From contig OZ286472.1 of NCBI GenBank assembly GCA_965644265.1, forward strand, positions 53,010,001 to 53,074,000: DNA of 64,000 bases, given 5' to 3'. This document shows, one piece after another, positions 42,801-64,000 of the stretch. The first letter of the stretch is position 1. Each line of letters starts with the position of its first letter. The position numbers were made by a program, and so were the translations under genes. The notes under the pieces were generated by a model. It made no database searches, was not told where the DNA came from, and saw nothing but the letters and a program-made list of their open reading frames with translations. The DNA is from Glycera tridactyla. Taxonomy: Eukaryota.

Positions 42801-45800
42801 TAGGGCAATAGAATTAATTGTCACTTCATGCAAGAGCCATTATGATATATGTCATTCAAGGAGTCAAGTGTGATCTATTTCTCTGGTTGGGTAACATTAC
42901 TTACAATACATTAAATTGGAAATAGTCTTCAATTGATGAGACAAGGATATTGCAGTTCCCTGAAATGAAGAACACAATACTATTCTGGACTACTCAGTAA
43001 ATCTTGTGTTGAGTATTTGGAACTCTACACTAAAAATTTGGTGAGTTCATATAATCTAGTAATTCTTTTTCATTTCTAATTGGGGTTCCCTTTGCTGTCC
43101 TGGACTTTGAGACAAACAGTTGCCCTCGGAAGGTCCAAGCTCTTGACAATTTCTTTTGTGGCCCTCTGTTTTGCCTGGCAGTAAAAAACAAACTTGCCAT
43201 CTGACGTGTAAGGAACTCACTGATAAAGATGTTCTTTTTAGCCCTGGCTAATTGAAGTCTATTCTGGTAGCATGCCATACTTTTGGCAGATGAGACAAAT
43301 TCTACTAGTATGGTTCGAGGTCTGCTGCCCACTCTACCAATACGCCTTGCAATCTCTATATCTCCAAGTAAAATGCTTGGGTTAATCAAACCTCTCATTG
43401 AATTTACTAGATGTTCAGGGGTTGATTCATTGTCCACTTCATCTATCCCATCAAACATTAGCATTTTCAGATTGCCAGATGTTTCCAGTGTTTGAACCTT
43501 TTCAGTCAGATCTTTCAAAGATTGGTCATAATTGGAAATGGAATTTCCTGTAGATTGAGCAGTTTGAAACTCGTTCAACATTTTGCTCATATCAGCCAGC
43601 TTTTTGTCAATACTGTCTGGTTCAAGAATGTGCAGATTAGCTAAATCATTCTGTGCTTTAAGTGAGTCAGTTTCTAATTTTGCAATTCTAGCCAACATTT
43701 GGTCAATATTCAGATCTTGAATCTTTTTGTCACACTTATGGGCAATGCGAAATACAGACTCTTCAATAACTGGTATCTTAGCAGTAAGTTCAGTGCATTT
43801 TGCCATATCAGTTTTCAAAACAGCACTTGTTTCTTCTAAAGAAGCAATAGCTTTGTCAGTAGACACCAGCTTGGTATTTATCTTGTCTAGAGAATCATTC
43901 AAGGCACCCACAATCAACTTTCTGTGTTCATCACTGCTGAAAACGTTCACAAAACATTCATTGAATAATTGCTTGAATTGTATTGGGTCAATTTTCACAC
44001 TACCAACACCTGAAACTGGATCTTCTTTGTCTTCCATCTTGTCAGAGTGTGTGGATTTAGTTTTAGTAGAAGGAGTTCTTCTTGAGCAGAAATATTTTCC
44101 ACTTGGTCGTACCAGCTTGCACCAGGAAAATTTGGCCAGTCCTCTGGATAATCACTTGCTTCTTCCACCTCTTGATAAAAACGATCTTGCAGATGGTGAA
44201 GTTTATGTTCAATTTCAATAAATGACTCTCTTCTTGCAGAATTGTCCGCTGCGCTCGCAAATAGTTCTGAGACTTCTTGTAGAATGCTCACACCTTCTGG
44301 ATAAATAGCTGATCTGTCCTCTGGTATGAAACTGCGGATGGTAGCATCAAAGTCTAGCTGTTTTGGGGTGCTCTGAGTGACAATGAATGGGCCATGAACT
44401 CCAGATGTACTCTGCAGTGGGGTTGTCAATTTATCAGTGGAGCGGGTACGCTTCGTGCTGACCCCTCCCTCAGGTGATTCATCGGGCTTCCTTTTAACAT
44501 GTGTTTGTCTACCCTCTCTGAACGATGGAGCTGGGGTATTCAGGCTACTTGTAAGTTCAAGGCTGCCGGAGATATTGTTGTTATCGCTCACCAGTGTATT
44601 GTCTTGTGGTTCACTCGCTTCCATAGTTACCAGTCAGCCGCCATGTTGTTTATCTCCGTCACGACACTGTTACGTCTTCAAAGTACGGAATGCATCAAGA
44701 ATGAATACTTCTGATGGCTAGAACAAACATCATCGTGATCCATGCCACTTCACCCTCTTCATGTCAGGAATGGCAACTGACAACTTCTAGGCATTTCTTC
44801 ATTGATCCCGATATCTAGCGGTTGCTTACGATCCCTCTCCCATGCTCCCGGCATAGGAATACAGTCTGATGGTGATCCTGAAGATTGCATATGTAACTGA
44901 CTGTAAGCTGATGTTCAAGCTTGAAAGCACTTGGCTCTATTTTGAGCAAAGCACAGTACTTTGAACTGTAGACTACAAACCAGCTCTACAAATATGACTG
45001 CCCTCTGCTTACACAGGGTTCATACGCGTCCTGGAATCCTGGAATAGTTATGGAAAATTGCCAAAGAGAATTCCAGGACTGGAAAAGTTATGGAAAAATG
45101 AATTTCGCCAAAAATGTCCTGGAATTTTGAGAATTTGCTGAAATTTTGTATCTTTTATGATAAAAAGAATGACAGAAACATGGCATCGTCAATGTGTGGT
45201 GATCAAGAATTTGAAATTCAATACTGAATAAAAATCCAATCAGACCATCTGAAAGATCTCACCCCACTAGTCATTTTGGTGTGTACGTTGTGAAAATTGG
45301 ACCAAGATATGACACAAAATGAGTCAATGACAGCTCATTTTAGATTTTCATATTCATTTGCATGTCCTGGAATAATTGCTTGGTGACCTGGAAATGTCTT
45401 GGAAAAGTTATGGAATAAAATTCTGCCAAGCGTGTATGAACCCTGTTACAGTACAATGAAATCACCCTATCTCGTGAACCTGATTGCAGCCCTAGTAACC
45501 TAGAACTGGTGTGTCTTGTTGCTGCACATTGCATAGTGACAATATTTGCTACAGGCAAACTGTCAGCCGCCTAAACCCGAGACTATATGGAGTAATCAAC
45601 GATAAATACTGAAAAATCAAGAATAGGCTTAGAGGGATAGACAGATGTGTTATCATCCACCCCTTCCACACACTGTAAGCTATGAGGAAATGAGGAGGGA
45701 TGATTCTACATCTAGGACCCATCATCCCTGATGGCAACACTTCAAATTAAATATATCTCATGCCCAATGGTGCCCTCCATCGATTTAGAAGTCTGTCAAG

Positions 45801-48356: not shown

Positions 48357-48979
48357 TGGTGACCTGGTGATCTATCTGACCTCGTTGGTACGCACAAGAC
48401 AGACTACTCCGGTTGTGTGAACGACAACTTCAACCTCAAAATGCAGCGCTCCGCTAAGATTGTGGCCCCTCTCAGTCGGTGGTTTTACCAAGGAAGTGAG
48501 CTGGTTGTTAACAGGTAGTTTATTCGATCCATTCATGCATTGGCTAGAGTGATTTATTTGTGTTACGTAAGTTCTATTTGACCATCGTAGCAGACGATTG
48601 TGAATTGGGTGTGTGGATTCTATGATGAGTCGTGTCTAACATCACGTTTTGCTATGTTTACATAGACCATACTGTCATCCAACATAATGACTCAGCCATC
48701 TATCTCAGTACTATGCTTGCATTGCATCCGATGCACTGAGAAATAACCTGAATCAACATTTATTGAGGAATGGGTGCAGGGGTCCTGAAATTTATGTAAT
48801 CACCAGTGGCCCTTTTCACTGTTCATTGGTTGTTCCACTCATTGATTGATGCATGCCATTGTCAACACATATCTCAGATATCAGCTGGATATGAAGCAGC
48901 ACCTTATCTGGATTTGGAGGAATATGAAACAGTGATAGCATGTATGCCCTCAGTGAGGTCGCTTCACCGACTTAGATAT

Positions 48980-49182
48980 TGTGGTGCGCGCGCCGCCGCG
49001 AATCGGCGGCGGAACTAACGCCGGCGCCTGCGCAGCCGGAATCGATAGAGTTTGGCTCACGGCGTTCGCACTACAGCACGTCGTTAGTCTTGAGCCTGAG
49101 CTCAACTCCACCATCACACAACAATCTGTGTATCTACTGATCCAAGTAAGTAGTAATCAGCATTATACAACCCAGCACAACA
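48980..49182 (+). repeat. 5' LTR (203 bp)
   Basis: No difference from the 3' LTR found by eye. CpG-rich first half with an 8-bp GC hairpin CGCCGCCG-cgaat-CGGCGGCG (48991-49011). GTAAGT at 49146-49151. No AATAAA or ATTAAA seen. Confidence 0.97.
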
Positions 49183-49183
49183 T

Positions 49184-49197
49184 TGGTGTCAGATGTG
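49184..49197 (+). promoter_or_regulatory. Primer-binding site, probably tRNA-Leu
   Basis: TGGTGTCAGATGTG, 1 nt after the LTR. One mismatch to TGGTGTCAGAAGTG, the complement of the metazoan tRNA-Leu(CAA) 3' end (recalled sequence). Confidence 0.75.
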
Positions 49198-50430
49198 CTA
49201 AATGGTGGCCCTATTTCGTGTGACATGGTGTATTTATCAGGCTTGTAGCAAGAGTGTTTGTGTTCCATGTTGAATGATTGCCCATGTGGGTGCCTTTGTT
49301 CTCTGGAGCACATGTTCTTGCACTACCTGCCCAACTGTGTTCAGTGTGGTTTTACATTAGGACTTTTGCATGATCATTCGAATTCGATATCTGTGATTAC
49401 GCTATGAACATACAAATGATATTCTGAATTTATTTGAGGAATTTGGTGTGTTCTGCCCATTGTTTGTGTCACATGTGGACTTCACACATGTGGTCCATTG
49501 TGATTGATTTCAGTGCACATGGTCTGTTATTTGATAATTGATTGATTTCTAGTATTTGTATTGTCAGTTCATCTGAATATCCATTGCTTCTCGAGAAACA
49601 ACTAAAGGATAAATTAAGTTTGTTGGGAGATTTACTGAGGTTTGCCCATTGTTTGTGTTAAATGTGGACTTAGGTTAATTGTAAATCAGTTAAATGCCCA
49701 ATTGTGAATCAGTTCAATGACCATACGTTTGCTCTCTGGTATTTGTTAATTCTGCTAAAAGTATCCGCATTGTCATTTGGAATTGAAAAGAAATGATTCT
49801 AGGGAAATCAGCTACATCCTAGATGTGTGTTATTGTGGATTTCATGTGTTTTGCATGGTGTCAGTGCCACATGTTGACTTGTCTTTGTTCAATGTAATGT
49901 TCAAATGCACATGGTTATGCGTAGTGATGATCAATAGCTATAATACTCATATCATTGCTTTGATTTAACATTTAATGGATTTGCTGGAGGGAATCTTTTG
50001 ATATTAATTTACATGACTTTGGGTGCCTTTGTTAAAATTACACATAACTTATGTGATTTAGTTGTTTCAATTCAACTGAAGCAGGATTTCATTTCCATTT
50101 ATCTTACCATGGGATCAGGAGTATAAGCGAATGACATACATAAATATTAGGTTCAATCAGTCTTAAATATATAAGTGATATTTGTGAATGTATTGCATGC
50201 ACATGTTATGTACTTGTTCTCTGTGAACCTCCTGTCACTGTTGGCCCTTGAATAGCCCAGTGGGTTTTTTCGGCTGCGCTCAATTAACCCTGTGTTTGGG
50301 GGTTGACAGTGTTGGTTGGTTTTGCTTTGCCCTGCATGGTGTGTGCATGATTCACATTAACATTATTGTAAGGACCATATTCTATTCGTAAGTCTATTTT
50401 CTCTCTGTCCTGTCTTGTTTGTGAACCAAA

Positions 50431-52239
50431 ATGGCTAGTAAAAAGAAAGTTGATCTGCGGGTGGCATCGCAACGTGAGATAGCCTCAGTGCCAGGGCTGA
50501 ATCATGATCTGGCAGCATCGGTGTTACAGTTGCGCGACCCTGAGGTGGGACTTGGTATAACCTTGGACGGGCTGAGGTGTATAAATGGGGCGGGCGATCT
50601 ATTTGACCGCCTATTGGAATGGGGTCTGATTGTTTTCGAGGGAGATGAAGAGGCAGATCATGACTCTGATGCCACAGTGGTGGATCTCAAGTCAGCAGTT
50701 GAGGCACTGCGGAAGGAGATGGGTGACCTGAAAAGGAGGTCCATTTCTCGCCATACTGTTGATCGGCTGGCCCCACAGGGAGTGTATCGTCGACCCAGGG
50801 ATGATGAGGATATGTGGGGGGAGGATTATTATGACAGGTCGGGGCGTGATGTTGAGAAACGCAGAGAGAGGGATGTTTCTCCAGTCCAACCTGCCTTCGA
50901 GTCCACTCCGGTGGACAGTTGGGATTATAGAGGGACTTCTCGGCCGAGCTCAGTTGACCCTCATGACCCACTGCATGACGGATGGAATCGAGGGTATGGT
51001 GGTAGAGACCATCAAGGGGATGGGCGACATGGGTACCATGGGGGGCATGATGAGGGGCCACGACACCCGGGATATCGTCAGGTCCCCCCACCCCCACCCT
51101 TCCCACAATATCCAATGCCTCCTTTCCCTCCCCACCAGAGTAATGGCTATCCCATGCGCGACCCCTACGCCGGTGGACGGCATCATAACGAGTGGGGAGA
51201 CTATATCCCAGCCATGCGTGATTACCCCCCTCGACCAAGGACCCCACCACCTATGATGGGAGTTGGTGATGCAGCTACATACGGCGGAAGAATATTGGGA
51301 CGCCCGGGATTGGCACCAGGCGGGGGGCCCCGCCAGTCCCCAAGGGGACCTCCACCACCAAAGATGCCAACTTACAATGGCAAGCAGGAGTGGAAGCCAT
51401 TCTTCATCCAATTCGAACGGATGGCGGCAAGATACGCCTGGGATGAAGTGGAGAAGCTTGACAAACTCGTGGAATCCCTGCGAGACAAAGCGCTGAAATT
51501 CTTCAGTGAACGGCCAGAAACAGATCAAGTAGATTACTACCAACTGGCGGCAAGGATGGCTGCACGTTTCGGGAAGAAGGATCTCCCACCAACTGTTCGT
51601 CGCCAGTTGCAGACGGCTCGACAGAACACCGAGGAGACCTTGGAAGAGTTCAGCGACCGGGTTCTTGAGCTGGCTACGGATGGCTACCCGGGGGCTCCGT
51701 CCTCTATGATCGAAACTTTGGCTGTTGATGCCTTCTTGAAGGGATGCACGGACAAGCATGCTGCACTCATCACCATGGACAAAAACCCATGTACCCTTGA
51801 CGGCGCTCTTGCTATGGTGAAGTCAGCCGTACACAACAAGTCGGCCCTACTCGGAAAACCCCAAGGAAAGATAGATGTTAAACAACTGTCATTCGTGGAT
51901 GAGTTGGAGAGTGAGGACGACTTCAGTGTGCGGGCCATCAACCGACCCTCTGTATCATTCTCACAGGGATCTCGGGTGTCCCGGGTGGACCGCCTGGAGA
52001 AAGGGCTTGCAGAGGTGGTAGAGACACAGAAAAAGCTCTTGGCCATGATGAGCGCATCAGGGTCGAATACCAGTCGTCCTGTTACCCAGCGGGCCGTGTC
52101 CCCGGGACGGGATCGGTGCTTTCGCTGTGACCAGCCGGGGCATTTCAGCCGAGACTGCCCACAGAGGGAAGGCTCACGGCCGGGCTCAAGGTCCCAATCT
52201 CCATCGCCCGTGGGAAGTCGCCCGGCACCCCCAAAATAG
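50431..52239 (+). CDS. gag: Gag (602 aa): N-terminal HhH-like domain, disordered linker, capsid-like domain, CCHC knuckle
   Basis: KMPTYNGKQEWKPFFIQFE capsid-type start; CFRCDQPGHFSRDC = CX2CX4HX4C. Confidence 0.93.
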   Translation: MASKKKVDLRVASQREIASVPGLNHDLAASVLQLRDPEVGLGITLDGLRCINGAGDLFDRLLEWGLIVFEGDEEADHDSDATVVDLKSAVEALRKEMGDLKRRSISRHTVDRLAPQGVYRRPRDDEDMWGEDYYDRSGRDVEKRRERDVSPVQPAFESTPVDSWDYRGTSRPSSVDPHDPLHDGWNRGYGGRDHQGDGRHGYHGGHDEGPRHPGYRQVPPPPPFPQYPMPPFPPHQSNGYPMRDPYAGGRHHNEWGDYIPAMRDYPPRPRTPPPMMGVGDAATYGGRILGRPGLAPGGGPRQSPRGPPPPKMPTYNGKQEWKPFFIQFERMAARYAWDEVEKLDKLVESLRDKALKFFSERPETDQVDYYQLAARMAARFGKKDLPPTVRRQLQTARQNTEETLEEFSDRVLELATDGYPGAPSSMIETLAVDAFLKGCTDKHAALITMDKNPCTLDGALAMVKSAVHNKSALLGKPQGKIDVKQLSFVDELESEDDFSVRAINRPSVSFSQGSRVSRVDRLEKGLAEVVETQKKLLAMMSASGSNTSRPVTQRAVSPGRDRCFRCDQPGHFSRDCPQREGSRPGSRSQSPSPVGSRPAPPK

Positions 52240-55200
52240 AAAGAGCTGCCTTTGTTGGCCACAGGACAGCTCGCAGGGACACTGGCCAAGATCACGATTT
52301 TAGTAATATTCTGGATCCGGCTGCGCTCGATCTGGAAAGGAAATGCACCAGCTCGGTGGGGACAAGTGACTCCTACGACTCGGCAGGGCTCAGTCAACAG
52401 AGTCAGATCACCAACCTCGTCATGGATTCAGCCGACTCGGCGGAGCTCAGTCATGCTGATTCTGATGATGACCGTGACGGACAGGTTACTGGACGGACAG
52501 ACGATGCAGTCATGCTCTACCAATCAGATTCGGCAGCGCTCAATCAGGATGGCATGGCAACGGCTGCATGTACTGCACAGACGGAAGACAGACCGGAGGT
52601 GCGGATACGGGAAGTGACATTGTTCGCCGACACACGGGGCCCCATGAAGAACTTAACCATTCCAGCGAAAGTAAATGGGACACCGGTCCCCGCGCTGGTG
52701 GACACGGCGGCCCAAGTGTCGGTCATCAGTGAAGAATTTGCGGCGACCGTGAAAGAGCCTCTGACCTTGACGGACCATTTATGGCTAAGGGGGGCCGGAA
52801 AAGGAAGCAGATTCCCGGCGAGACAGGCAGTCGGAACCCGCATTGACCTGGGGGATACCCTCTACCTGCATGATGTGGTGGTCGCTCCCATCAATGACCC
52901 TTTCATCCTGGGCCTGGACTTCATGCAAAAGCAAGCCATGAAAATAGACATGGCCAGCAACTCTATTCAGGTCGGGGGGGATACCCTTTCCACGCATATA
53001 ACAGACACATGTGCTGGCTCCGGGCGTGTCCGGGGCCTGACCTTGATCGGCGACGTAATTGTGCCACCAGGCTCGATGATCCATGGAACAGCTCGGATGG
53101 AGGGACCGTCAACGATTCCCAGCGCGATGGTGATCGATCCCAGGCCGGACATCGGAGGAATCATGATTCCACACCTCATGGTCAAAGGTCAGCCTGTGGT
53201 TTCCGTCCTCCTGATAAATCCCACGGATCAACGGGTCCATCTACAGGGTGGATTGAATCTGGGATCGGCAGAAGAGGCGGATAAGTTGCTGATCACAAAG
53301 ACACACATGGAAAGCGATAATTTGACACGGAGTGTGCGTCGCTTGGGAGCCGATCAACCAGGGGTTAGTAACCTGCCTGAGTTCCTGGAAGATCTAAGGA
53401 ACCGCTCGAGTAAGCACCTGTCAGAGGCTCAGTCGGCGGCGCTCACTGGCCTCCTCAAGGATTACACGGACGTGTTCGCCAGGGATGATATGGACTTGGG
53501 TCGGTTCACAGCGATCGAACACACTATTGACGTTGAAGGAGCGAAGCCAGTGCGCCAAGGGATGCGTCGCACACCTATCGGATTTGAGGCAGAGGAGAAG
53601 AAGCACCTGGAGGGCATGTTGGAGCGCGGAGTCATCCGACCGTCATCCTCAGGATGGGCATCTGCACCGGTCCTTGTACGAAAAAAATGCGGAGCAGTCC
53701 GATACTGCATCGACTTCCGGGCGCTGAACGCTGTCACCAAAAAAGATGCCTTCCCTTTGCCGCTAATTGAGTCATGCATGGATGCCTTGTCGGGGACCAA
53801 GTTTCTGAGCACATTGGATTTAGCGTCTGGCTACTGGCAGATCGAGTTAGCGGAAGAGGATAAGCCCAAGACTGCCTTCATCACTCGCTATGGCCTGTTC
53901 GAGCATGAACGCATGCCCTTTGGCCTTTGCAATGCACCGGCAACCTTCCAGAGGGCCATGCAGTTAGTCCTACATGGCATGCTATGGGAAGAATGTTTGG
54001 CCTACCTTGATGATGTCGTGGTGCTCGGTCAAGACTTCGGGGATCATCTGGAAAAACTCAAGCGAGTGATGGATCGGTTTCGAGAGTACAATTTGAAGTT
54101 GAAGCCCAAAAAGTGCGTGTTGTTCCAGAAAGAAGTACGCTTCCTAGGACATGTAGTGAGTGGCACTGGAGTGGCGGTGAATCCTGACAACGTCGAGTCT
54201 GTGAAGACCTGGCCGGAGCCGAAATCAGTAAAGGAGGTGGAGTCATTCCTGGGATTCATCAATTACCATCGGAACCATATCGCTCATCTGGCGGATCTGA
54301 CAGCTCCCCTAAATGAAGTGACCGGGTCTAAGGCCACCTTCAAATGGGGTCCAGAGCAACAGGAGGCATTTGAAAAGATCAGGGCCGCCATGATCAGCTC
54401 GGCAGTGCTCAGCTATCCCGACCCTGATCCCGAGTGTACCTTCATATTGGATACAGACGCCTCGGACCGAGGAGTAGGGGCCGAGTTGTCACAAATCCAA
54501 CGGGGATGTCCGAAGGTCATCTCATATGGTAGTCGGGTCCTGACCCCAACACAGCGACGCTACTGTACCACTCGCAAGGAACTCCTTGCAGTAGTTACCT
54601 TCACCAGACAGTATCGTCACTACCTTCTCGGACGTCACTTCATCGTTCGTACTGACCATCATAGTTTGACATGGCTACTGAGGTTCCGCAATCCTGAAGG
54701 CCAGCTTGCCAGATGGTTGGAGGAGCTTGGCCAGTACAGCATGGAGATAGTACACAGGCCGGGAAAGGACCACACCAATGCAGATGGACTTTCACGCATC
54801 CCAGACAACAACCTAAAATGTGACTGTTACTCCTCCGGTTCGGATCCCAAATTGTTACCATGTGGAGGTTGTAGCTACTGCCACCGAGCTCACAGCCAAT
54901 GGACGCGATTCGAGGAGGACGTGGATGATGTAATCCCCATTGCCATTCGGTCGGTGTCTCACACCCCAAACGACAATAAGACGGACGTGAAGCACGGTGG
55001 CCACATCAATTGGATGGAGACCTACACGCCGGCAGAACTATCCCGACTCCAACACGAAGATCCTGATCTCAGGGTGGTCCATGACTTTTTGAAGGAAACT
55101 TCAGTGGAGGAGACCCCAGAGATTTTCCTGAGTAGCCCTGCCGTCAAGCATTGGTGGCTAAACAAGGAGCAGCTGGATGTTAAGGAGGGTGTCCTCTACT

Positions 55201-56723
55201 ATAGATGGGAAAGTGATCATGGCCCAACTCTCCAGTTCCTGGTGCCTGAGTCACTGAAGCAGGAAGTGCTCAGTCTGTGTCATGACAGAAGGTCTGCTGG
55301 ACATCTCGGGGAGAAGAAGACACTTGCTCTTCTTCGTAACCGGGTGACCTGGTATGGAATGTCTAGGGACTCAAAGCTATTCTGTCGCAGTTGTGCAACC
55401 TGCAGCTTGAACAAAAAGGCAAACGTGAAGGCAAAGGCACAGTTGGGACAGTACCATGCAGGGGCACCCATGGAGCGGGTCCATATGGATATTCTAGGAC
55501 CACTAACACCATCTGCCAAGGGCAACCTCTACATCTTGGTTATAATATGCCAGTTCACCAAGTGGATAGAGGTATTTCCACTCCCTCGTCAAACTGCTGA
55601 GGACGTGGCCAGTGCAGCATTTGACGGATTCATCAGCCGGTTTGGTTGCCCTCTTCAAATCCACACTGATCAGGGAAAAAACTTTGATGGCAAACTGTTC
55701 CATGCTTTCTGCAAACTTCTCGAAGTCACCAAGACGCGTACCACGCCTTACCGGCCGGCAGCAAACGGTCAGGTCGAGCGGTACAACCGCCTCATTTTAC
55801 AGATGGTACGTTGTAACCTGGAGGGTGGACAGAAGAATTGGGATGAGCATCTTCCTTCCCTGGCCGGGGCAATCCGAGCCATGGAAAACAGGCAAACCGG
55901 GTTCACGCCGAATCTCATGATGCTAGGGAGAGAGGTACTCCAGCCAGTAGATTTGCTCTTTAGGCCTCCACCAGAGCAGGAAAAGAAGAAAACACCAGCA
56001 TCGTATGTATCTGAGCTCTGTGAAAGGCTCCGGAGAGCACATGAGCTAGCAAGAACAAATGTTCGAGCAGCCCAGCGAAGACAAAAAAGGGACTACGACG
56101 TTCGCCTCAAAGAACACACGTATGCCGTGGGAGATCTGGTGTACCAGCTGAACTCGGCTACCAGAATAGGACAAAGCAACAAGCTGAAACGACCCTGGAA
56201 GGGCCCCTTTCTGGTGACCGAAGTGCTCTCGCCGGTGGCATATCGAGTGAACAGCCGCCGGAAAACGCAGGTTGTGCACCACGATCGGCTTCGTCTTTGT
56301 GAGGACAGAGTGGTACCCTTCTGGACACGGAGGATGAGACACCAGTTGCTGGACCTGGACACCACCATCGGCTATGACGAGGCAGAGCGGGAGGAGGAGG
56401 ATGAAGACGATGAGTTGCCATTTGGTTTGGATGAACTGCTTGACCCGCTGCACAACACCCCTAGTCTGAACCCTGGCCCGGCGGAGCTAGGCCAGGGAAA
56501 GGAGGTTAGTGCAGTACCAGACCTACATGGTGAAAAAGAGGAGGCTCTGTCCGAAGGTGATGCACCGGAGCCTGGCCCGGCAGAGCTAGGCCAGGCTTCT
56601 CAGACTTATGACAAAAAGGTAGTTAAACCCCATTCTGCATGTGTAGATCCTCCCCTAGATCCCCTACCACGTCGACGGGTGCGAAGGCAACCCAAACGGC
56701 TGGAGGGGTTCATCCTTGACTAA
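52230..56723 (+). CDS. pol: Pol (protease, RT, RNase H, integrase), in the -1 frame relative to gag
   Basis: PR LVDTAAQVSVI; RT ERMPFGLCNAPATFQR and YLDDVVV; RH DTDASDRGVG and KELLAVV; IN H-H-C-C zinc finger plus D(MDILG), D(TDQG), E(VERYN), and a GPF motif. The frame is open from 52131; the start shown is the inferred shift site. Confidence 0.96.
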   Translation, partial: PKIERAAFVGHRTARRDTGQDHDFSNILDPAALDLERKCTSSVGTSDSYDSAGLSQQSQITNLVMDSADSAELSHADSDDDRDGQVTGRTDDAVMLYQSDSAALNQDGMATAACTAQTEDRPEVRIREVTLFADTRGPMKNLTIPAKVNGTPVPALVDTAAQVSVISEEFAATVKEPLTLTDHLWLRGAGKGSRFPARQAVGTRIDLGDTLYLHDVVVAPINDPFILGLDFMQKQAMKIDMASNSIQVGGDTLSTHITDTCAGSGRVRGLTLIGDVIVPPGSMIHGTARMEGPSTIPSAMVIDPRPDIGGIMIPHLMVKGQPVVSVLLINPTDQRVHLQGGLNLGSAEEADKLLITKTHMESDNLTRSVRRLGADQPGVSNLPEFLEDLRNRSSKHLSEAQSAALTGLLKDYTDVFARDDMDLGRFTAIEHTIDVEGAKPVRQGMRRTPIGFEAEEKKHLEGMLERGVIRPSSSGWASAPVLVRKKCGAVRYCIDFRALNAVTKKDAFPLPLIESCMDALSGTKFLSTLDLASGYWQIELAEEDKPKTAFITRYGLFEHERMPFGLCNAPATFQRAMQLVLHGMLWEECLAYLDDVVVLGQDFGDHLEKLKRVMDRFREYNLKLKPKKCVLFQKEVRFLGHVVSGTGVAVNPDNVESVKTWPEPKSVKEVESFLGFINYHRNHIAHLADLTAPLNEVTGSKATFKWGPEQQEAFEKIRAAMISSAVLSYPDPDPECTFILDTDASDRGVGAELSQIQRGCPKVISYGSRVLTPTQRRYCTTRKELLAVVTFTRQYRHYLLGRHFIVRTDHHSLTWLLRFRNPEGQLARWLEELGQYSMEIVHRPGKDHTNADGLSRIPDNNLKCDCYSSGSDPKLLPCGGCSYCHRAHSQWTRFEEDVDDVIPIAIRSVSHTPNDNKTDVKHGGHINWMETYTPAELSRLQHEDPDLRVVHDFLKETSVEETPEIFLSSPAVKHWWLNKEQLDVKEGVLYYRWESDHGPTLQFLVPESLKQEVLSLCHDRRSAGHLGEKKTLALLRNRVTWYGMSRDSKLFCRSCATCSLNKKANVKAKAQLGQYHAGAPMERVHMDILGPLTPSAKGNLYILVIICQFTKWIEVFPLPRQTAEDVASAAFDGFISRFGCPLQIHTDQGKNFDGKLFHAFCKLLEVTKTRTTPYRPAANGQVERYNRLILQMVRCNLEGGQKNWDEHLPSLAGAIRAMENRQTGFTPNLMMLGREVLQPVDLLFRPPPEQEKKKTPASYVSELCERLRRAHELARTNVRAAQRRQKRDYDVRLKEHTYAVGDLVYQLNSATRIGQSNKLKRPWKGPFLVTEVLSPVAYRVNSRRKTQVVHHDRLRLCEDRVVPFWTRRMRHQLLDLDTTIGYDEAEREEEDEDDELPFGLDELLDPLHNTPSLNPGPAELGQGKEVSAVPDLHGEKEEALSEGDAPEPGPAELGQASQTYDKKVVKPHSACVDPPLDPLPRRRVRRQPKRLEGFILD

Positions 56724-56833
56724 CCAGACACCCTAGCGGACAGTGAGGGGATTGCATGGATCCCCCTCAAACCTGGTTTTGACCAGCAATAACATAACAT
56801 TCTCTCTGCCCCACAGGTCAAAATAGTGGCAAG

Positions 56834-58327
56834 ATGGCTGAATACGAAGAACTCGTACTCGATTATGATGAGGAGGGTTTGGCACAGGAGGAGCCATATG
56901 TGCCACACTCCATACCCAGGGGGGCCACAAGGGGAAGGGGTTCTTGGTGTCCCCTGTGCCCTCATCGTTTCACTCATGTGAGGCGGCATGTTATATCCGA
57001 TCATCTACCCTGGTACACCTGCCCCTCGACAGCGTGTTGGATCTGTGGTCAGCAGGAACAACATGTCTCATTCGTTCTGAGGCACCTGTTGACTCATGAT
57101 CAGGCCTCTTCTGGGCAGTTCCAGTCCCAAAATGCTGGTGAGGAGTATGTCTACCTCATGAACGGGCTCCTGCACGAAATCGGCCAGGTAAATGGGTTGG
57201 CCGACATTCCCGCCCTCTTCGAGTATGTCCGGGGCCAGGAGAGCCTTCATCCCAAGTCAACCACCCCAATCAGATCCCTGGATGTGGAACTGATGGGGCT
57301 GTTCCTGTCAGTGAACAGGCAGGAAGCGCCACCTTCGTTCAGCTTGACGCCGCCGAACTCTCCAGCATGCCTGCTCCATTGGCGAGTATTGGCAAACTTG
57401 CTGGCAGAGCTCCCCCTCCATGAGCAACGGCGTCTGCGGGAACTTGGCGTCCGCAGAGACTATTGGGGTGAGGCCTTGCAGGCCCTGCCAGAGGTGGACC
57501 AGGTGTGGGCAGGGGAGGTTGTCGACGCCCACCTCCACTTAGATGCCTGGTGCAAGCGCACAGGATGCCAGAATTTGGGTGGAATCCTGGACCTCCCCGG
57601 TGTCGGACAATTTCCATTCCAGCTCGTAGGCGCAGTTTCCAATCTGTGCTGGCCAAGGTCCTGGCCGGGGGCTCAGGCGAGGGCTCGCCTCCTTGAAGAC
57701 AATCGGGTCCGACTGACATTTGGCATCCATCCCCGCATAGCTTCAGACCCTAGTGTGTCAGATGCCGCCTTGAGGGGTCACTTGGCTGCTCTCCGCACCA
57801 ATCTGAATGCTGACGGGGTTGTGGCCGTCGGAGAATGCGGACTCGACTATACCGCTTGCCCCGAGGGGAATACGGCAATGCGGCGGCGTCAGGAGGGGTG
57901 CTTCTTGCATCAAGTGCTCCTGGCAGAACCAAAAGACCTCCCCCTGGTGATTCATAGCCGGGATGGAGGTACGGGCTCAGCGGCAGAGCGGTGTCTGCAG
58001 TTACTGAAGTCAGTCCTGCCGCGTCACTATCCGGTGCATCGGCACTGCTTCACGGGGTCCCTCCAGGAGTACCAACAGTGGAAACATGCATTTCCGCGGT
58101 GCATTTTTAGCATCTCGCCCTTGGTCCTCCAGGATCCCGTCCTGTGCCAGGTAGTCCGGAGCATGGAGATCGGAAGTCTCGCTCTCGAGACTGACGCTCC
58201 CTACCTGGCTACATCATTTGCATCCCTGGGGGAAATTGCAGAGGTCATTGGCAGGGCACACAATATCCCATCCTCATTAGTTCTGAGGATCACCACCCAG
58301 ACAGTCCGAGCCTTTTACGGTCTGTAA
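56834..58327 (+). CDS. C2H2-zinc-finger/TatD-family nuclease fusion (497 aa), inside the retrotransposon
   Basis: VDAHLHLD, FGIHP, VGECGLDY, LPLVIHSR, HCFTG and LETDAPY are the ordered TatD metal-binding motifs. N-terminal C39-C42-H52-H57 and C68-C71-H84-H88. Kozak aagATGG; intronless. Confidence 0.93.
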   Translation: MAEYEELVLDYDEEGLAQEEPYVPHSIPRGATRGRGSWCPLCPHRFTHVRRHVISDHLPWYTCPSTACWICGQQEQHVSFVLRHLLTHDQASSGQFQSQNAGEEYVYLMNGLLHEIGQVNGLADIPALFEYVRGQESLHPKSTTPIRSLDVELMGLFLSVNRQEAPPSFSLTPPNSPACLLHWRVLANLLAELPLHEQRRLRELGVRRDYWGEALQALPEVDQVWAGEVVDAHLHLDAWCKRTGCQNLGGILDLPGVGQFPFQLVGAVSNLCWPRSWPGAQARARLLEDNRVRLTFGIHPRIASDPSVSDAALRGHLAALRTNLNADGVVAVGECGLDYTACPEGNTAMRRRQEGCFLHQVLLAEPKDLPLVIHSRDGGTGSAAERCLQLLKSVLPRHYPVHRHCFTGSLQEYQQWKHAFPRCIFSISPLVLQDPVLCQVVRSMEIGSLALETDAPYLATSFASLGEIAEVIGRAHNIPSSLVLRITTQTVRAFYGL

Positions 58328-58442
58328 GGAAGCTGCCAATGTATCAAGGGGGGCTGCTGGCCAGCTGTGGATTCATCTGGCTCCTATTTTTCGATCTGAC
58401 CAGGTAAGTTGGGGGCGAATGTGATGTGACTTCAATTCCTAG

Positions 58443-58969
58443 TCCGGCTGAGCTCGACTTAGGATCCACGTATGATCCATGCATTCTCCTTCATCCCTGG
58501 TAGCGCTTGAGAAGTCGAAGCCAGATAGGTTGGCCCCATAGTAGGAGTCCTAAGCGTTATTGTTGTCAGTCCGGCAGAGCTCGACTGGGGACACTAAGAC
58601 TTGCCAATTTGATCTGTCTCCCCTCCTCCGGCTGAGCTCGAGAAGTGGAAGCCAGAACTGTAAATAATTTATTGATCCTTGCCAATTCTTGCCATCGGCC
58701 TGTCCTTCCCTCCTCCGGCTGAGCTAGAGGGGTGGAATCCAGGCATGTATATATTTTAGCTAGCCTTGGATCAATTACGTTGGTCCACGGCAGCATATAT
58801 TCCCATGTAGTACATTTTGTCTCCCCTCTTCCGGCTGAGCTCGAAGTGTGGAAGTCCGAAATGTATATATTGTAATCTAGTTAAATTGTTTATGTGTTCC
58901 GTACCAGTTGCACTCGGTACGAGACCTCCTTCTAGTCTCTGACCCGTTTCCTCCTCCGGCTGAGCTCGA
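58443..58969 (+). repeat. Six dispersed copies of TCCGGCTGAGCTCGA in the retrotransposon 3' UTR
   Basis: Copies start at 58443, 58570, 58627, 58714, 58830 and 58955 (0-1 mismatch). The last four extend into ...GTGGAAG-like tails. Confidence 0.9.
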
Positions 58970-59142
58970 GGTATGGAAGTCAGAACTAGGATTATCGTTG
59001 TATTTATATCAACCAAGCCAAACTACCCTCCATTGAACCCTTTCATTAATCAACCTTAGCCCCAATCTACTAGTTCCCGGGGTCATTTTCAGGTACTGGG
59101 GGACCCTAGATCGGCTGTGCTGAACAGGGTCCCAATTTATAT

Positions 59143-59154
59143 GACGGGGAGGAG
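59143..59154 (+). promoter_or_regulatory. Polypurine tract
   Basis: GACGGGGAGGAG immediately upstream of the 3' LTR TG. Confidence 0.85.
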
Positions 59155-59357
59155 TGTGGTGCGCGCGCCGCCGCGAATCGGCGGCGGAACTAACGCCGGC
59201 GCCTGCGCAGCCGGAATCGATAGAGTTTGGCTCACGGCGTTCGCACTACAGCACGTCGTTAGTCTTGAGCCTGAGCTCAACTCCACCATCACACAACAAT
59301 CTGTGTATCTACTGATCCAAGTAAGTAGTAATCAGCATTATACAACCCAGCACAACA
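59155..59357 (+). repeat. 3' LTR (203 bp)
   Basis: Direct repeat of 48980-49182, preceded by a purine tract. Confidence 0.97.
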
Positions 59358-59394
59358 ATATCACTGAATGATATCCATACTCTGCTACCTTGAA

Positions 59395-60187
59395 CAGGTT
59401 AGGGCCTGGCCTGTTATTCCAGTACGTACTGAAATCACAGGGCGTACTGGAATCACAGGATGGTGGGTGTACTGTAATCACAGGACGTACTGGGCTTTCA
59501 GTACACTGTGCTGTGATGAGTGGATTTTGAGTAAATAACCAAGTATGTCCAGAATTTTCCCTTACTGTTCTCGGGAACTGTGATCTTCATTGGCTGTAAA
59601 GTACTGACATGAAAACACAGTATTTTCGGGTTTAGGGAACACCAATATCGTTGCAATTGTGTGAGATGGAGCAGAATTATATACCATTGAAAATAGGCTA
59701 AAGGGTGTTATTCACGATCTCTGATGTCAAAATCACCTTGCCATTGCAAAACCACTTGGTGGATTTTTCTCAACTTGCACTTAAATTGTGAACATCTGCC
59801 TCCAAAATAGGCATGAATTTACAGTGAGCTCATCAATCAAAAATTTGTCAGGAGACATAAATGTGGCAAGATTTTATGATTTTTCATTTTTGCCTCCAAC
59901 TCCCAACTGCATATCTCACCTCCAAATTACCCAATTTCGATAAAAGTGGGCTCCTCAGAATCAGAAAATAGTCAGCTTTCGAACCAATATCTAGCAGTTT
60001 GTGGGATTTGGGAATAAATAGTGATTTTGAGGAAATATTTAGACCCATTCATGGTTGACTGATAGTCTAACCTCAGTGTCCTGGGATCCCAGGACGTACT
60101 GTAATCACAGTACACCTGCTGTCCTGTGATTTCAGTACGCCCTGTGATTTCAGGACGTACTGGAATAACAGGCCAGGACCTAACCTG
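59395..60187. mobile_element. 793-bp TIR element with 5-bp TSD TTGAA
   Basis: ~65-bp TIR CAGGTTAGG(G/T)CCTGGCCTGTTATTCCAGTACG...; subterminal GTACTG(A/T/G)AATCACAG repeats; TTGAA at 59390-94 and 60188-92. Confidence 0.88.
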
Positions 60188-61228
60188 TTGAAGAGTGATA
60201 TCCGTACCTTGAAGTACTTTGTGTCTTGCAGTAGAATCTATAGAAGTCATCAAGTTATTCCTTGCACATTTATCCCAAATTTTGAAGATTGGGTCCTTGC
60301 TTTTTCAGTGTATGGAGATAACAACAATGTCATGAAATCTGCTGGCCACTGATTTATACCACTGCATTCTGGTTACCAATGACTCTTAGTGTAGGGAGGA
60401 GGCTTCTAAATGAGTGCCAAGATGAGCCACTCACTCGCCCAATATACCATACCTATGACAGTGACCAAGGAAAGATGAGGCCTTCATAATCTGGCAGTGT
60501 ATCTTGACAGAAATAGATTGGCCAAAATGGTCAAGCAAAATTGTCCATAGATTTTTCATGTTTGACTTGAAAATTGCTTGTAGTATGTCACAGAATTGGC
60601 AACTACTGGCTGTTGTGCGTGATAATAAGCATGTACATGCACACTTGTCAGTTATCAATGCTCGCAGTGGTAAATAGGTGAGGTCACTGTAGATGTCTTC
60701 CAGTGATTTGAATACTGGACCTGATATACATCCATGCACACATATATCTTCCAATTGCATGCATTACCTTCATAATGTACATAGTGACATCACCCAGTAC
60801 TATTGATGCAGATGCAAAGGTAGGTTTCTGAGATCCATGCTGGAGAGAAGTGATTTATGTGTATTCACTGAAGTAATAACTAGGACATGTTTGTTTTAGA
60901 GAAAATCTGCATGTCAATGATGAGTTGCCTCCCTCAAAATGGGATGCAATAAAATCATTTCAACTTGGTGACATCAAGTCAGTACAGTTTGGTTGATTGC
61001 ATCACCACTAACCCATAGCTTGTGAAGAATTCATGAGGAGGATGCCAAGCTTTGCCTCAGTGAGATGTTTGATGTTCATTTCAAAATTTGTCATTAGACT
61101 TTGTGTGATGGATTGGCACATCTAAAATTTTCTGAGGAATGCCATCTGATCCCAGAATGCTCATCATTATCAAAGAGGGGGCTCTCAGACAATGTTCTAA
61201 TCACAGGATGCAGGTTGCCCAGGTGTGA

Positions 61229-61403
61229 CAGGGCTCTACGTTGCTACCAAATTTACCCTCTGGCTACCATATTTTGAATGTTGGGAGCCAGCTGACCCTA
61301 AAACTTTTGAGAGGTTGTGATAGGCAATGTATTGACTGACTTCCAAAATTTTAAACTGAGGAGCCTTCCAGCTCCTGAATATTTTTGCCAACATAGAGCC
61401 CTG
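61229..61403. mobile_element. 175-bp MITE with 5-bp TSD TGTGA
   Basis: TIR CAGGGCTCTA(C/T)GTTG; TGTGA at 61224-28 and 61404-08. A related partial copy starts at 17177. Confidence 0.85.
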
Positions 61404-64000
61404 TGTGATTTGTGAACATACATAGGGCTGAGTGTATAGCTAATATGTGGCAAATGCTTATTATGGGTAGATAATTTCATGTATGTGCAGATATATTGTG
61501 GGATTGGCTGGTTTGCATCCCACTTGATGAATGAAAACTATATTCAGTACACAGCTCAATGAGAATTTGTTTGAGGGAAAATATATTGAACAAAGTAGGA
61601 AAAATACATCCAAAATCCAACAATGAGCTGTAACATCATTACATGTATTTAAAAACTGCAAAAAAATATTCCAATATCGTGCTATTCACCCTCAGGCCTG
61701 TAACTGTATGTCCCAGAACTATAAGCCACATCGTTCTGAAATCCTTGGTTGCAGTATACTGTACCCAGGCTGTACTCTATCGTGCGAATAAACAGTTTGA
61801 ACAGTTTTGAAGATTTATATCATTTTCAAGTAAATATGAGTGTTTTTGCATTATAACTGCTCAAGATTTCTGTTTTAATGAACCCGCCCTGAATTGTTCA
61901 TATTTCGAATGTTTTTATGGAATTTCTTTACTCTGTCACTTGTCCAAAGTACACTGGTCAATACTGCAGCTTCATATGTACTTTGTAATATAGCTAGATG
62001 CATTATCATGATCTGTTCCTCGTTGACCTGGAGTTTGAACTGAATGATGTCATTCTGTATCCAAAGATCAGCCACTTGACCTGTATTCATCCATACAACT
62101 CTTTCATGTTAGCATTCATCATAAATGGCACAGTAGCCGTTGCCCGGGACATGGATTTCTAATGTTCAAAGTATTTGGATGTGATATTATATACTATACA
62201 ATATTAATGCAAAGATCCACCTATCTTGACAACTGTTCAATACATCTGTACCAGGAGCGGGCGATGTACATGTATCACTGTATTATGACCCTGTCCCTCG
62301 AATGAAATAAATATACATGTATGCATATTTTCTTTCCGTCACTGTGAGAATAATACAGAATTTCTATCGAACAAATGACATAATATTTTAGTTTATGGCT
62401 TTTCAGCTGGTGCTAGCCTGCATGATATTGACCAATCAGGGATCCCAGTGCCCAATAAAATCTGGAAAAGAACTCTGATATTTTGAAACTACACTGTTAA
62501 AAAGGCCCTTGAAAGTGTATTCGATTCTCATCAGTGGAAAATGCATTATAACTTGTTTTTGGCCCTAGGAAATCATTGGATTTTCGATGAAATATACACA
62601 TGTAATTGTCCATCATTTAAATTCATGCCCGTGGAGTATTTTCCAATTGAGGTACTGAAAATGAAAATCTAATCATGTAGCCCTTGGGATCATGATATTT
62701 TGTCCTGGAAAACTGATCATCCTAGCCCTCATGAGTTTTGGAAAATTTCTAGATTTTGTTTCTGCATCATGAATTGGCATTATGGCCAATATTCTTGCAA
62801 TCATGCATGACTGAGCCACCTGTGGTTTGTAGTCTTGTCAATTACAGGGTGACTACACATTTGTTCTTCAAGAGTACTCAATGTACCACAAAGGTGTATC
62901 ACAGTCAATCACCTAGAATGGCCTGAAAGTGTATTTCCTTGTCAGATACCTGCAGAACCACCACCTGGTATCAGTAGAAGGGAATCAGGCAGCAGCTGTG
63001 CATAGAGGGTCACCTGCATGATGACCATGATGTGTGTGTGTGTGTGGGGGGGGGGGGGGGTCATCTGGGTGTACATGTCACTCAGTACCAGCATGTACCA
63101 GCATATAGTGGACCCTCTTCTCTGGACACCACTGATTTCTGGGCCCATTACAGAATGGTGCTGTAATCTTGTGACACAGATTACACTGTCAGGACCTGTA
63201 CAAGGATATTAATTCACCGGCAGTCCTATTTCCATTGCCCTTAGATTTGGGTGTAACATAATAAAATGAGATCTGTTTGACCGCTGACATGTATGGAATG
63301 TTTTTTTTCCCATATCTGAATGAACATGGAGTGAAAATTCCCCCCCCCCCCCAAAAAAAAAAAAAGTGAGATAAAAATAAAATGATGTACTGCATCAAGC
63401 TGATGTCAAACCTGCTCAAGACAAACTCTGTACAATGGCCACTGCCTACAATGGCCACCTTGAGCTGTGACTGCAAATATACTTCCTACGTTGAACAAAC
63501 TTTCTATGTTCACCAAAAGCAACAAAAGGTGGTCGTAGTGGTTAGGTTAAATTGTATGTATCAGTCACCCTGCTTCACTTATGTTTGTTCACCCTCTTAG
63601 TGTCTAATCCAGAGGGGGCGTTGGGGCAAATGGCCCCATAGATCTGACAATACACCCTTTTTTCTGGATTGAGGGGTGCATTTCACCCCATCAGAAAGCC
63701 CAATTGATGCATAATTCACAGTGTCTATTCTGTTTCCTGGGTAGTGGTTTTCACCTGGTCACACTACCAAGCTTTTCCATTTTATTTGAAACATTGTGGC
63801 ATTGCTTGGGAAAAATCCCCCTCCCTCCAAGAACATTCCTTGAAACGCCCCTCTTTTTCAGAGAGGGGGCATTTACCCCTGGAGTCAATTTCTAGATTGG
63901 ACACTGCCCTGTCGAATTGGTGAGCCTGCTTGAATTTTCAAAAAATATTGTTGCCGAAAACCCAATTCCAGTCACACATTCATTTAGCATCCGATGTCTT

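Follow-up and report, generated by a model that had tools for sequence, protein, structure and literature searches.

In Drosophila, the env genes of the gypsy, ZAM, idefix, springer and Beagle subclades of errantiviruses are described as being expressed from spliced RNAs, in which the upstream exon contributes a pre-gag peptide, an AU dinucleotide or a Gag peptide (bioRxiv 10.1101/2023.08.03.551782). The third open reading frames (ORF3s) described for Juno and Vesta of bdelloid rotifers encode a DEDDy exonuclease or a GDSL esterase and are said typically to have spliced messages (PMC5408684). Foamy viruses are reported to have their major splice donor within the long terminal repeat (LTR) (PMC3694450), and the gypsy element Cer1 of C. 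elegans gives a 2.4-kb spliced mRNA for a novel protein (PMC3315495). The main text of a survey of envelope-carrying retrotransposons (PMC13524379) holds no words starting with 'splic' or 'nuclease', and the available part of PMC6338049 adds nothing to the comparison. Here we describe an element in a stretch of 64,000 nucleotides (nt) from Glycera tridactyla (assembly GCA_965644265.1, contig OZ286472.1, positions 53,010,001 to 53,074,000 of the forward strand), which as a whole is called the window. The element is an intact, recently inserted Ty3/gypsy (Metaviridae) retrotransposon, and its ORF3, located past pol, encodes a TatD-like protein. From the genomic sequence, we predict that ORF3 is expressed from a spliced RNA. 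The acceptor ending at 56816 is very probably used, and splicing from a donor inside the 5' LTR (49145) to 56817 is probably the main route to ORF3.

The assignment to Ty3/gypsy follows from the LTRs, the target-site duplication, the primer-binding site and the polypurine tract, and from the presence of gag and of pol in the order protease (PR), reverse transcriptase (RT), RNase H, integrase (IN). The parts of the element are listed below in window coordinates; a slash in a splice-site motif marks the predicted exon-intron boundary.

48976..48979, plus strand: target-site duplication ATAT in the flanking sequence, repeated at 59358-59361
48980..49182, plus strand: 5' LTR, 203 nt, exactly equal to the 3' LTR, its 5' part rich in GC and CpG
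49009..49089, plus strand: promoter-like motifs 5' of the donor, which we take to be ETS-like (49009, 49036) and NRF1-like (49024)
49047 and 49084, plus strand: AGAGTT and TTAGTC, 5' of the LTR donor, presumably initiator-like
49143..49151, plus strand: predicted 5' splice donor CAA/GTAAGT, with 37 nt to the LTR end, 5' of the primer-binding site
49146..56816, plus strand: predicted intron of 7,671 nt, which would hold primer-binding site, leader, gag and pol
49184..49193, plus strand: primer-binding site TGGTGTCAGA, presumably tRNA-Leu-like
49183..50430, plus strand: leader, 1,248 nt, 38 ATGs, no acceptor close to the gag ATG
50388, plus strand: weak leader donor TTC/GTAAGT
50431..52239, plus strand: gag, by profile matches (Retrotrans_gag, PNMA-like, zinc knuckle)
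52131..56723, plus strand: pol (PR-RT-RNase H-IN), -1 frame, overlapping gag, 1530 open codons
56756..56782, plus strand: mini-ORF of 8 codons in the pol-ORF3 gap, in the ORF3 frame, stopping 5' of the acceptor
56793..56798, plus strand: branch-point-like CATAAC
56800..56816, plus strand: predicted 3' splice acceptor, a pyrimidine tract plus CAG (TTCTCTCTGCCCCACAG to 56816)
56817..56833, plus strand: predicted start of exon 2, 17 nt, ATG-free
56834..58327, plus strand: ORF3, 497 amino acids (aa), with an acidic DYDEE N-terminus, Cys/His motifs and a C-terminal TatD domain
58401..58409, plus strand: perfect donor CAG/GTAAGT in the 3' untranslated region (UTR), 77 nt past the ORF3 stop
59146..59154, plus strand: polypurine tract
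59155..59357, plus strand: 3' LTR, with the second donor copy at 59321

The initial annotation of this DNA had proposed the splice sites from the letters of this copy, and they are found where it placed them: the donor CAA/GTAAGT at 49146-49151 and again at 59321, CATAAC at 56793-56798, and TTCTCTCTGCCCCACAG ending at 56816. It was also correct that the pol stop (56723) and ORF3 are separated by 110 nt, that the 17-nt leader is ATG-free and leads to ATG 56834 in the context aagATGG, and that no ATG precedes the donor; the whole 203-nt LTR is without ATG, TATA or AATAAA. Sites were scored with an approximate metazoan matrix not trained on the host. An earlier acceptor score, which gave C and T the same weight, had for five of seven families chosen positions within ORF3 itself and was replaced by this matrix; the scoring was thus altered once after the data had been seen. 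With the matrix, the LTR donor has 5.9 bits against -1.2 for the best antisense site (shuffle p=0.014) and the acceptor 4.4 against 1.1 (p=0.077), both p-values referring to this single copy. No other GT 5' of ORF3 scores as high as the donor, and of all 591 GTs only CAG/GTAAGT at 58404 exceeds it. Among the 678 AGs of the element the acceptor ranks third, and no other non-coding AG reaches its score. To call it strong, as had been done, therefore somewhat overstates a site that is present but modest in one copy. The sites of a single copy are suggestive, not decisive, and because these scores are modest, the case for them rests on the sister families.

A search of the 2.04-Gb host genome with ORF3 gave 89 matches. 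Twenty loci with such matches were fetched and gave seven full-length families: A, to which the window copy belongs, and B, C, E, F, G and H, whose ORF3s are 32-46% identical to that of A. Ten further loci, picked by RT similarity alone, gave the TatD families K, L, M and P as well as families N and O, which are without TatD. By RT, the 11 TatD families group together in a single clade (support 100/100), which N and O adjoin at weaker support, and no LTR pair aligns across families (blastn, E<1e-3). For each family, the sense and the antisense strand were compared by the highest-scoring donor at any position of the LTR and by the highest-scoring acceptor in the interval from the pol stop to the start of ORF3. 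The sense donor scores higher in 12 of 13 families, the exception being O with its 2.6-kb LTR, and the sense acceptor in all 13. Fisher-combined shuffle p-values, with independence assumed, are 6e-9 (donor) and 8e-6 (acceptor) for the 13 families, and 8e-10 and 9e-5 for the 11 with TatD. The six families that were picked by RT before their ORF3 was known show the same bias (donor 5/6, acceptor 6/6). The best LTR donors of the TatD families have 4.2-8.9 bits. The position of the donor varies: it is mid-LTR in H, K, L and M, and close to the LTR end in A, B, C, E, F, G and P. In the LTR of family N, TATA is found at position 90, TCAGTT at 126 and the donor at 208. A conserved donor ahead of gag that would give a translatable message is thus present outside B, C and O, and an acceptor between pol and ORF3 is conserved in the relatives.

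Within family A both sites are preserved. GTRAGT is kept in 16 of 17 LTRs, and the nine bases 5' of the donor are invariant even in old LTRs of 75-83% identity, which are themselves interrelated. The acceptor AG and its tract are kept in all ten copies that contain the exon start; the initial annotation had named loss of the acceptor from sister copies as evidence that would speak against it, and its claim survives this check. Of the branch motif, TAAC is kept in an old copy of 87% identity and is deleted in another old copy.

A further arrangement is seen in families E and F. Here the LTR donor reads ATG/GTGAGT, and 13-16 codons without ATG, which carry the motif DY(D/E)EE, come directly after the acceptor in frame 0. 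Families A, B, P and N have their own ORF3 ATG past the acceptor, followed by the acidic DY(D/E)EE, and homologues from outside carry the motif too. The first ATG past the acceptor of family E is out of frame. In family F, which has ~20 near-identical copies, the ATG-free codons are open in 11 divergent copies (78-99% identical), one of which has a frameshift just past the DY codons. An old F LTR, 89% identical, has ATG/GTAAGT; the donor was covered in two of six old F stretches. Of all the observations, this in-frame ATG/GT argues most strongly that the LTR donor would pair with the ORF3 acceptor, the LTR providing the start codon.

A second line of evidence is provided by copies that appear to have lost an intron. 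The screen covered ~102 distinct copies of seven families (A 10, B 22, E 6, F 23, H 21, K 12, O 8). Four copies, corresponding to three independent events in families H and O, have a GT donor joined exactly to the predicted acceptor (L082, G000:C29 ~54.34 Mb; L100/L101, C51 ~48.23-48.24 Mb; L093, C4 ~119.66 Mb). In the first O event, 437 nt (GTATGG...TTTGCAG) are missing and the junction, which allows no register other than GT-AG or one shifted by a single base, leads exactly to the predicted exon start. The second, present as a tandem pair, removes 1,563 nt from a GTGAGT donor in the integrase region to the same base. In the H event, a pol GTGAGT donor is joined to the predicted H acceptor with a loss of ~3,906 nt; a later insertion leaves 14 matching donor-side bases, which are contiguous with the preceding alignment. 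The primer site is retained in both O events; the 5' end of the H copy has undergone rearrangement. The copy on C29 has two near-identical LTRs and the primer site, and the loss fuses the region of the pol tail to ORF3. GT occupies 5-6% of positions, so that three GT ends by chance have a probability of ~2 in 10,000, with the exact landing left uncounted. Other breakpoints near the acceptor are scattered (about -15, +10, +15, +19 and +85), and the printed ends of other deletions, in 12 odd copies, do not lie at splice sites, the H and O cases aside. The simplest reading is that the intron-loss copies are reverse-transcribed spliced RNA, and read in this way they show that the homologous acceptor was used in families H and O.

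On this basis the following course of events is proposed. Transcription would begin within the first, GC-rich half of the LTR, and the unspliced RNA would serve as genome and as gag-pol message. Splicing of 49145 to 56817 would remove 7,671 nt with 183 upstream ATGs, so that the ORF3 AUG would be the first in the message and translation would start at 56834. Since the primer-binding site lies inside the intron, the reverse transcriptase of the element would be unable to copy the spliced message, and the replicated and the translated RNA pools would be kept apart by the intron-borne primer site. Occasional splicing from donors inside pol would retain this site and give the intron-loss copies that are observed. 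No copy that joins LTR to ORF3 was found among the ~102 screened, and none is expected, because splicing from the LTR donor would delete the primer site. The best acceptor within 150 nt of the family A gag ATG has -1.3 bits, and the LTR donor therefore has no obvious nearer partner. Splicing of the LTR donor to gag as an additional use finds no support: among the 11 families whose gag ATG was located (L and M are unscored), a good acceptor within 150 nt is present only in C and P. Leaders across the families are 0.8-2.4 kb long with 14-42 ATGs, mostly without a pre-gag acceptor, and gag-pol translation would therefore need internal entry or shunting.

It could be imagined that the acceptor is real, while the main ORF3 message has another 5' partner, such as the 50388 donor, the pol donors or a trans-spliced leader. 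All three fossil splices do come from pol-internal donors, Drosophila env donors are described near or in gag, and Cer1 is reported to use both cis-splicing and SL1 trans-splicing (PMC3315495). The fossils are biased, however, as they can record only donors 3' of the primer site. The 50388 donor is outside the top 10 of the element and its message would keep leader ATGs (38 in the leader), and the ATG/GT of E and F requires the LTR exon. We therefore regard another main partner as unlikely, and splicing from the LTR donor remains preferred.

The control set comprises 20 loci. Seven are usable short-LTR elements without ORF3, from four families; three represent one long-LTR family; the others are one env element with LTR, one partial match and eight env-type loci with LTRs outside the stretch. 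The best LTR donors of the four short-LTR gypsy families have 1.3-3.4 bits, lower than those of the TatD families (Mann-Whitney p=0.002), and in two of the four the best site differs between copies. The env element has a best donor of 0.5. These controls bear on a different role for the LTR donor, namely that it is mainly a U1 small nuclear ribonucleoprotein (snRNP) site for 3'-end control, as in foamy viruses, which is spliced to ORF3 secondarily or never. Such a role is quite improbable: the ORF3-less short-LTR families are without the site, there is no AATAAA-type signal to suppress, and the in-frame ATG/GT would be unexplained. The foamy-virus precedent (PMC3694450), the presence of the site in both LTRs and its varying position among families do fit it, but according to folding the 5' and 3' sites are predicted to be nearly alike in accessibility (0.55-0.67 and 0.49-0.56). 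A U1-site role and splicing to ORF3 are not exclusive and can coexist. It is very improbable that ORF3 is expressed unspliced, through an internal promoter at the pol end, reinitiation or internal entry, with motifs due to chance, for although the acceptor p of 0.077 in this copy, the mini-ORF in the ORF3 frame and the Drosophila MDG1-group accessory ORFs reported as expressed unspliced (PMC11952523) would agree with it, the acceptor is sense-biased in 13/13 families, intron-loss copies with exact GT-AG ends exist, and E and F have no own ATG ahead of the conserved N-terminal motif. Read-through from pol is excluded because the pol stop is out of the ORF3 frame (110 nt). The proposal of the initial annotation, a spliced subgenomic RNA for ORF3 through the 56816 acceptor, is accordingly well supported by recurrence in 13 families and by the ORF3-less controls, and is further backed by the ATG/GT of E and F and the intron-loss copies of H and O.

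Several observations weigh against splicing from the LTR donor as the main route. All the fossil donors are internal to pol and family A has no fossil splice (0/10 copies), and for this reason the partner of the LTR donor is one that we infer. The combined p-values overstate independence because the families share ancestry, and E and F may have one origin. Family F could instead start its ORF3 at Met 14. In family C, the best donor (4.2 bits) is at LTR position 5, and the plausible one, with 2.7 bits, falls within the control range. The in-frame acceptor of family E has 1.5 bits and is second to an out-of-frame site of 3.0, while L and P have several candidate acceptors each. In family B, ATGs precede that of ORF3 in the predicted message, and past the acceptor they include an ORF of 8 codons, so that the claim that the ORF3 AUG would be first holds in family A and fails in B. 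None of ten poly(A) hexamer variants is found in any of the 11 TatD-family LTRs. Finally, the controls are from a distant clade (RT 27-35% identical), and an ORF3-less family with 1.1-kb LTRs has a donor of 5.4 bits. Contigs from two runs, compared with the window copy and with family F, contain no joint at the predicted sites, and one contig of 151 nt and depth 2, whose RNA origin is a guess, runs across 56816 without a splice; neither carries weight in either direction.

The ORF3 product matches PF01026 (TatD) with E 6.6e-33 and 114.6 bits, the curated cut-off being 27, and contains all of the motifs HxH, GExGLD, H, HC and ETD. HxH and E(T/S)D are present in 12/12 ORF3s. The label ZnF-TatD given in the initial annotation is firm for its second part; the zinc finger was assigned by eye, and residues 1-189 match no Pfam family. 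TatD enzymes are 3'-5' exonucleases and apurinic/apyrimidinic (AP) endonucleases. As the metal-site motifs are present, our best guess is that ORF3 would process or clear nucleic-acid intermediates. These motifs are shared with the TatD/TATDN nucleases (PF01026; PDB 1yix, 4pe8, 2y1h), and the ORF3 protein, known from sequence, differs from them in being fused to ~240 aa of acidic and Cys/His N-terminus and in being borne by a retrotransposon. The ORF3s of families N (L090) and O (L084), without TatD, have weak C2H2-like matches. That of N has an acidic DYEEE N-terminus in common with the TatD families, which suggests either that TatD was fused to an N-terminal module already in existence or that these families have lost it. 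At L043/L044 (C51 ~11.94 Mb) and L045/L046 (C29 ~8.78 Mb), intact TatD ORF3 copies with 491-codon frames, 93% identical, have a very strong acceptor 1 nt 5' of the ATG and no pol/LTR pair in the fetched stretches; they are possibly truncated elements or host-captured exons.

Other features of the element and its surroundings can be mentioned briefly. GTAAGT sites not listed in the initial annotation occur at 50388 and 58404. The latter reads CAG/GTAAGT in a young subfamily and GTAGGT in older family A copies, and its partner acceptor was not found within the element. The idea that the 3' UTR holds a second, conserved intron was rejected, since this donor is confined to family A, has a lower strength in its old copies and is followed by no good acceptor. 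The initial annotation also supposed that the donor copy in the 3' LTR (59321) could splice read-through RNA into host exons further downstream; by eye, no such exon was identified in 59358-64000. The 3' UTR (58440-59009) contains several dispersed copies of a repeat with a CCGGCTGAGCTCGA core, including two further copies by eye. The Gag N-terminus (50431-50540) has a weak helix-hairpin-helix match (HHH_3, E 0.003, below cut-off), and similar Gag starts are visible by eye in the sister families. A family A copy at L031 (G000:C7 ~83.42-83.43 Mb) has a tandem internal duplication spanning pol and the acceptor. Elsewhere in the window, 38030-44633 on the minus strand resembles a long interspersed nuclear element (LINE), with ORF1-like frames and endonuclease and RT pieces in separate frames. 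A proline-rich, host-exon-like frame of 232 codons without Pfam match lies at 23564-24262 on the plus strand; if it is a host exon, the retrotransposon may have its place close to the gene in question or in an intron on the same strand.

The sites that recur, the start codon that apparently moved into the LTR and the fossil spliced copies together argue that the TatD gene is an expressed and maintained part of the element and not a passenger. More tentatively, it is possible that a whole clade of animal gypsy elements, represented here by 11 or more active families and elsewhere by relatives, has built an accessory TatD nuclease into its life cycle. It would be expressed via an LTR donor 5' of the primer site, so that the message is never replicated, with the LTR of one subclade giving the start codon, and the nuclease would act as a replication or counter-defence factor, for example by trimming or clearing complementary DNA (cDNA) or RNA intermediates. 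A wider implication is that splice wiring can be read from the genome alone, which gives exact junctions to look for, and that, where a species has no RNA data, the splice sites of its transposons can be mapped from copies that have lost an intron.

In comparison with the known systems, the element resembles the Drosophila errantiviruses in having a third ORF past pol that would be reached by splicing out gag-pol. The term env-style, used in the initial annotation, is nevertheless apt only in a loose sense: Drosophila env donors lie downstream of the primer site, whereas here the donor is inside the LTR and 5' of that site, unlike the mapped env junctions. Unlike errantiviruses, furthermore, the element has a TatD-like ORF3, with a match to TatD only and none to Baculo_F. 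ORF3s with Baculo_F sit in a separate RT clade of the same genome, where intact errantivirus-like elements (L106, L107, L111, L114) carry Baculo_F ORF3s of 510-722 aa. The element thus seems to work like an env-bearing gypsy, with a predicted spliced ORF3 RNA, yet is not an errantivirus. The upstream exon of the springer subclade is described as giving the AU of the start codon; the LTR exon of E and F would give the whole ATG.

Like Juno and Vesta, the element has a 3'-5' exonuclease-type enzyme in the env position, though its fold is TatD and not DEDDy, and 'TatD' occurs 0 times in PMC5408684; the available part of that report does not map splice junctions. A spliced third ORF is established for env and is there assumed for non-env ORF3s of open role. 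The duplication of the donor in both LTRs is as described for foamy virus, and in lying 5' of the primer site the donor resembles foamy virus more than Drosophila env. Foamy viruses are, however, Retroviridae, described with a poly(A) signal 3' of the donor, which was not found in the 11 TatD-family LTRs. Cer1 is likewise a gypsy element with a spliced message, whose splice sites are said to recur in related species; unlike the present case, its product is described as sharing in-frame pieces of Gag and its message can be SL1 trans-spliced. No report of a TatD-carrying retrotransposon was found at the level of titles and listings, although Repbase, subscription papers or supplements may describe one. 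Spliced messages for a third ORF are known as a class, and what makes this case specific is that the cargo is TatD-like, that the donor lies inside the LTR, which in one subclade would also supply the start codon, and that fossil copies bear witness to splicing.

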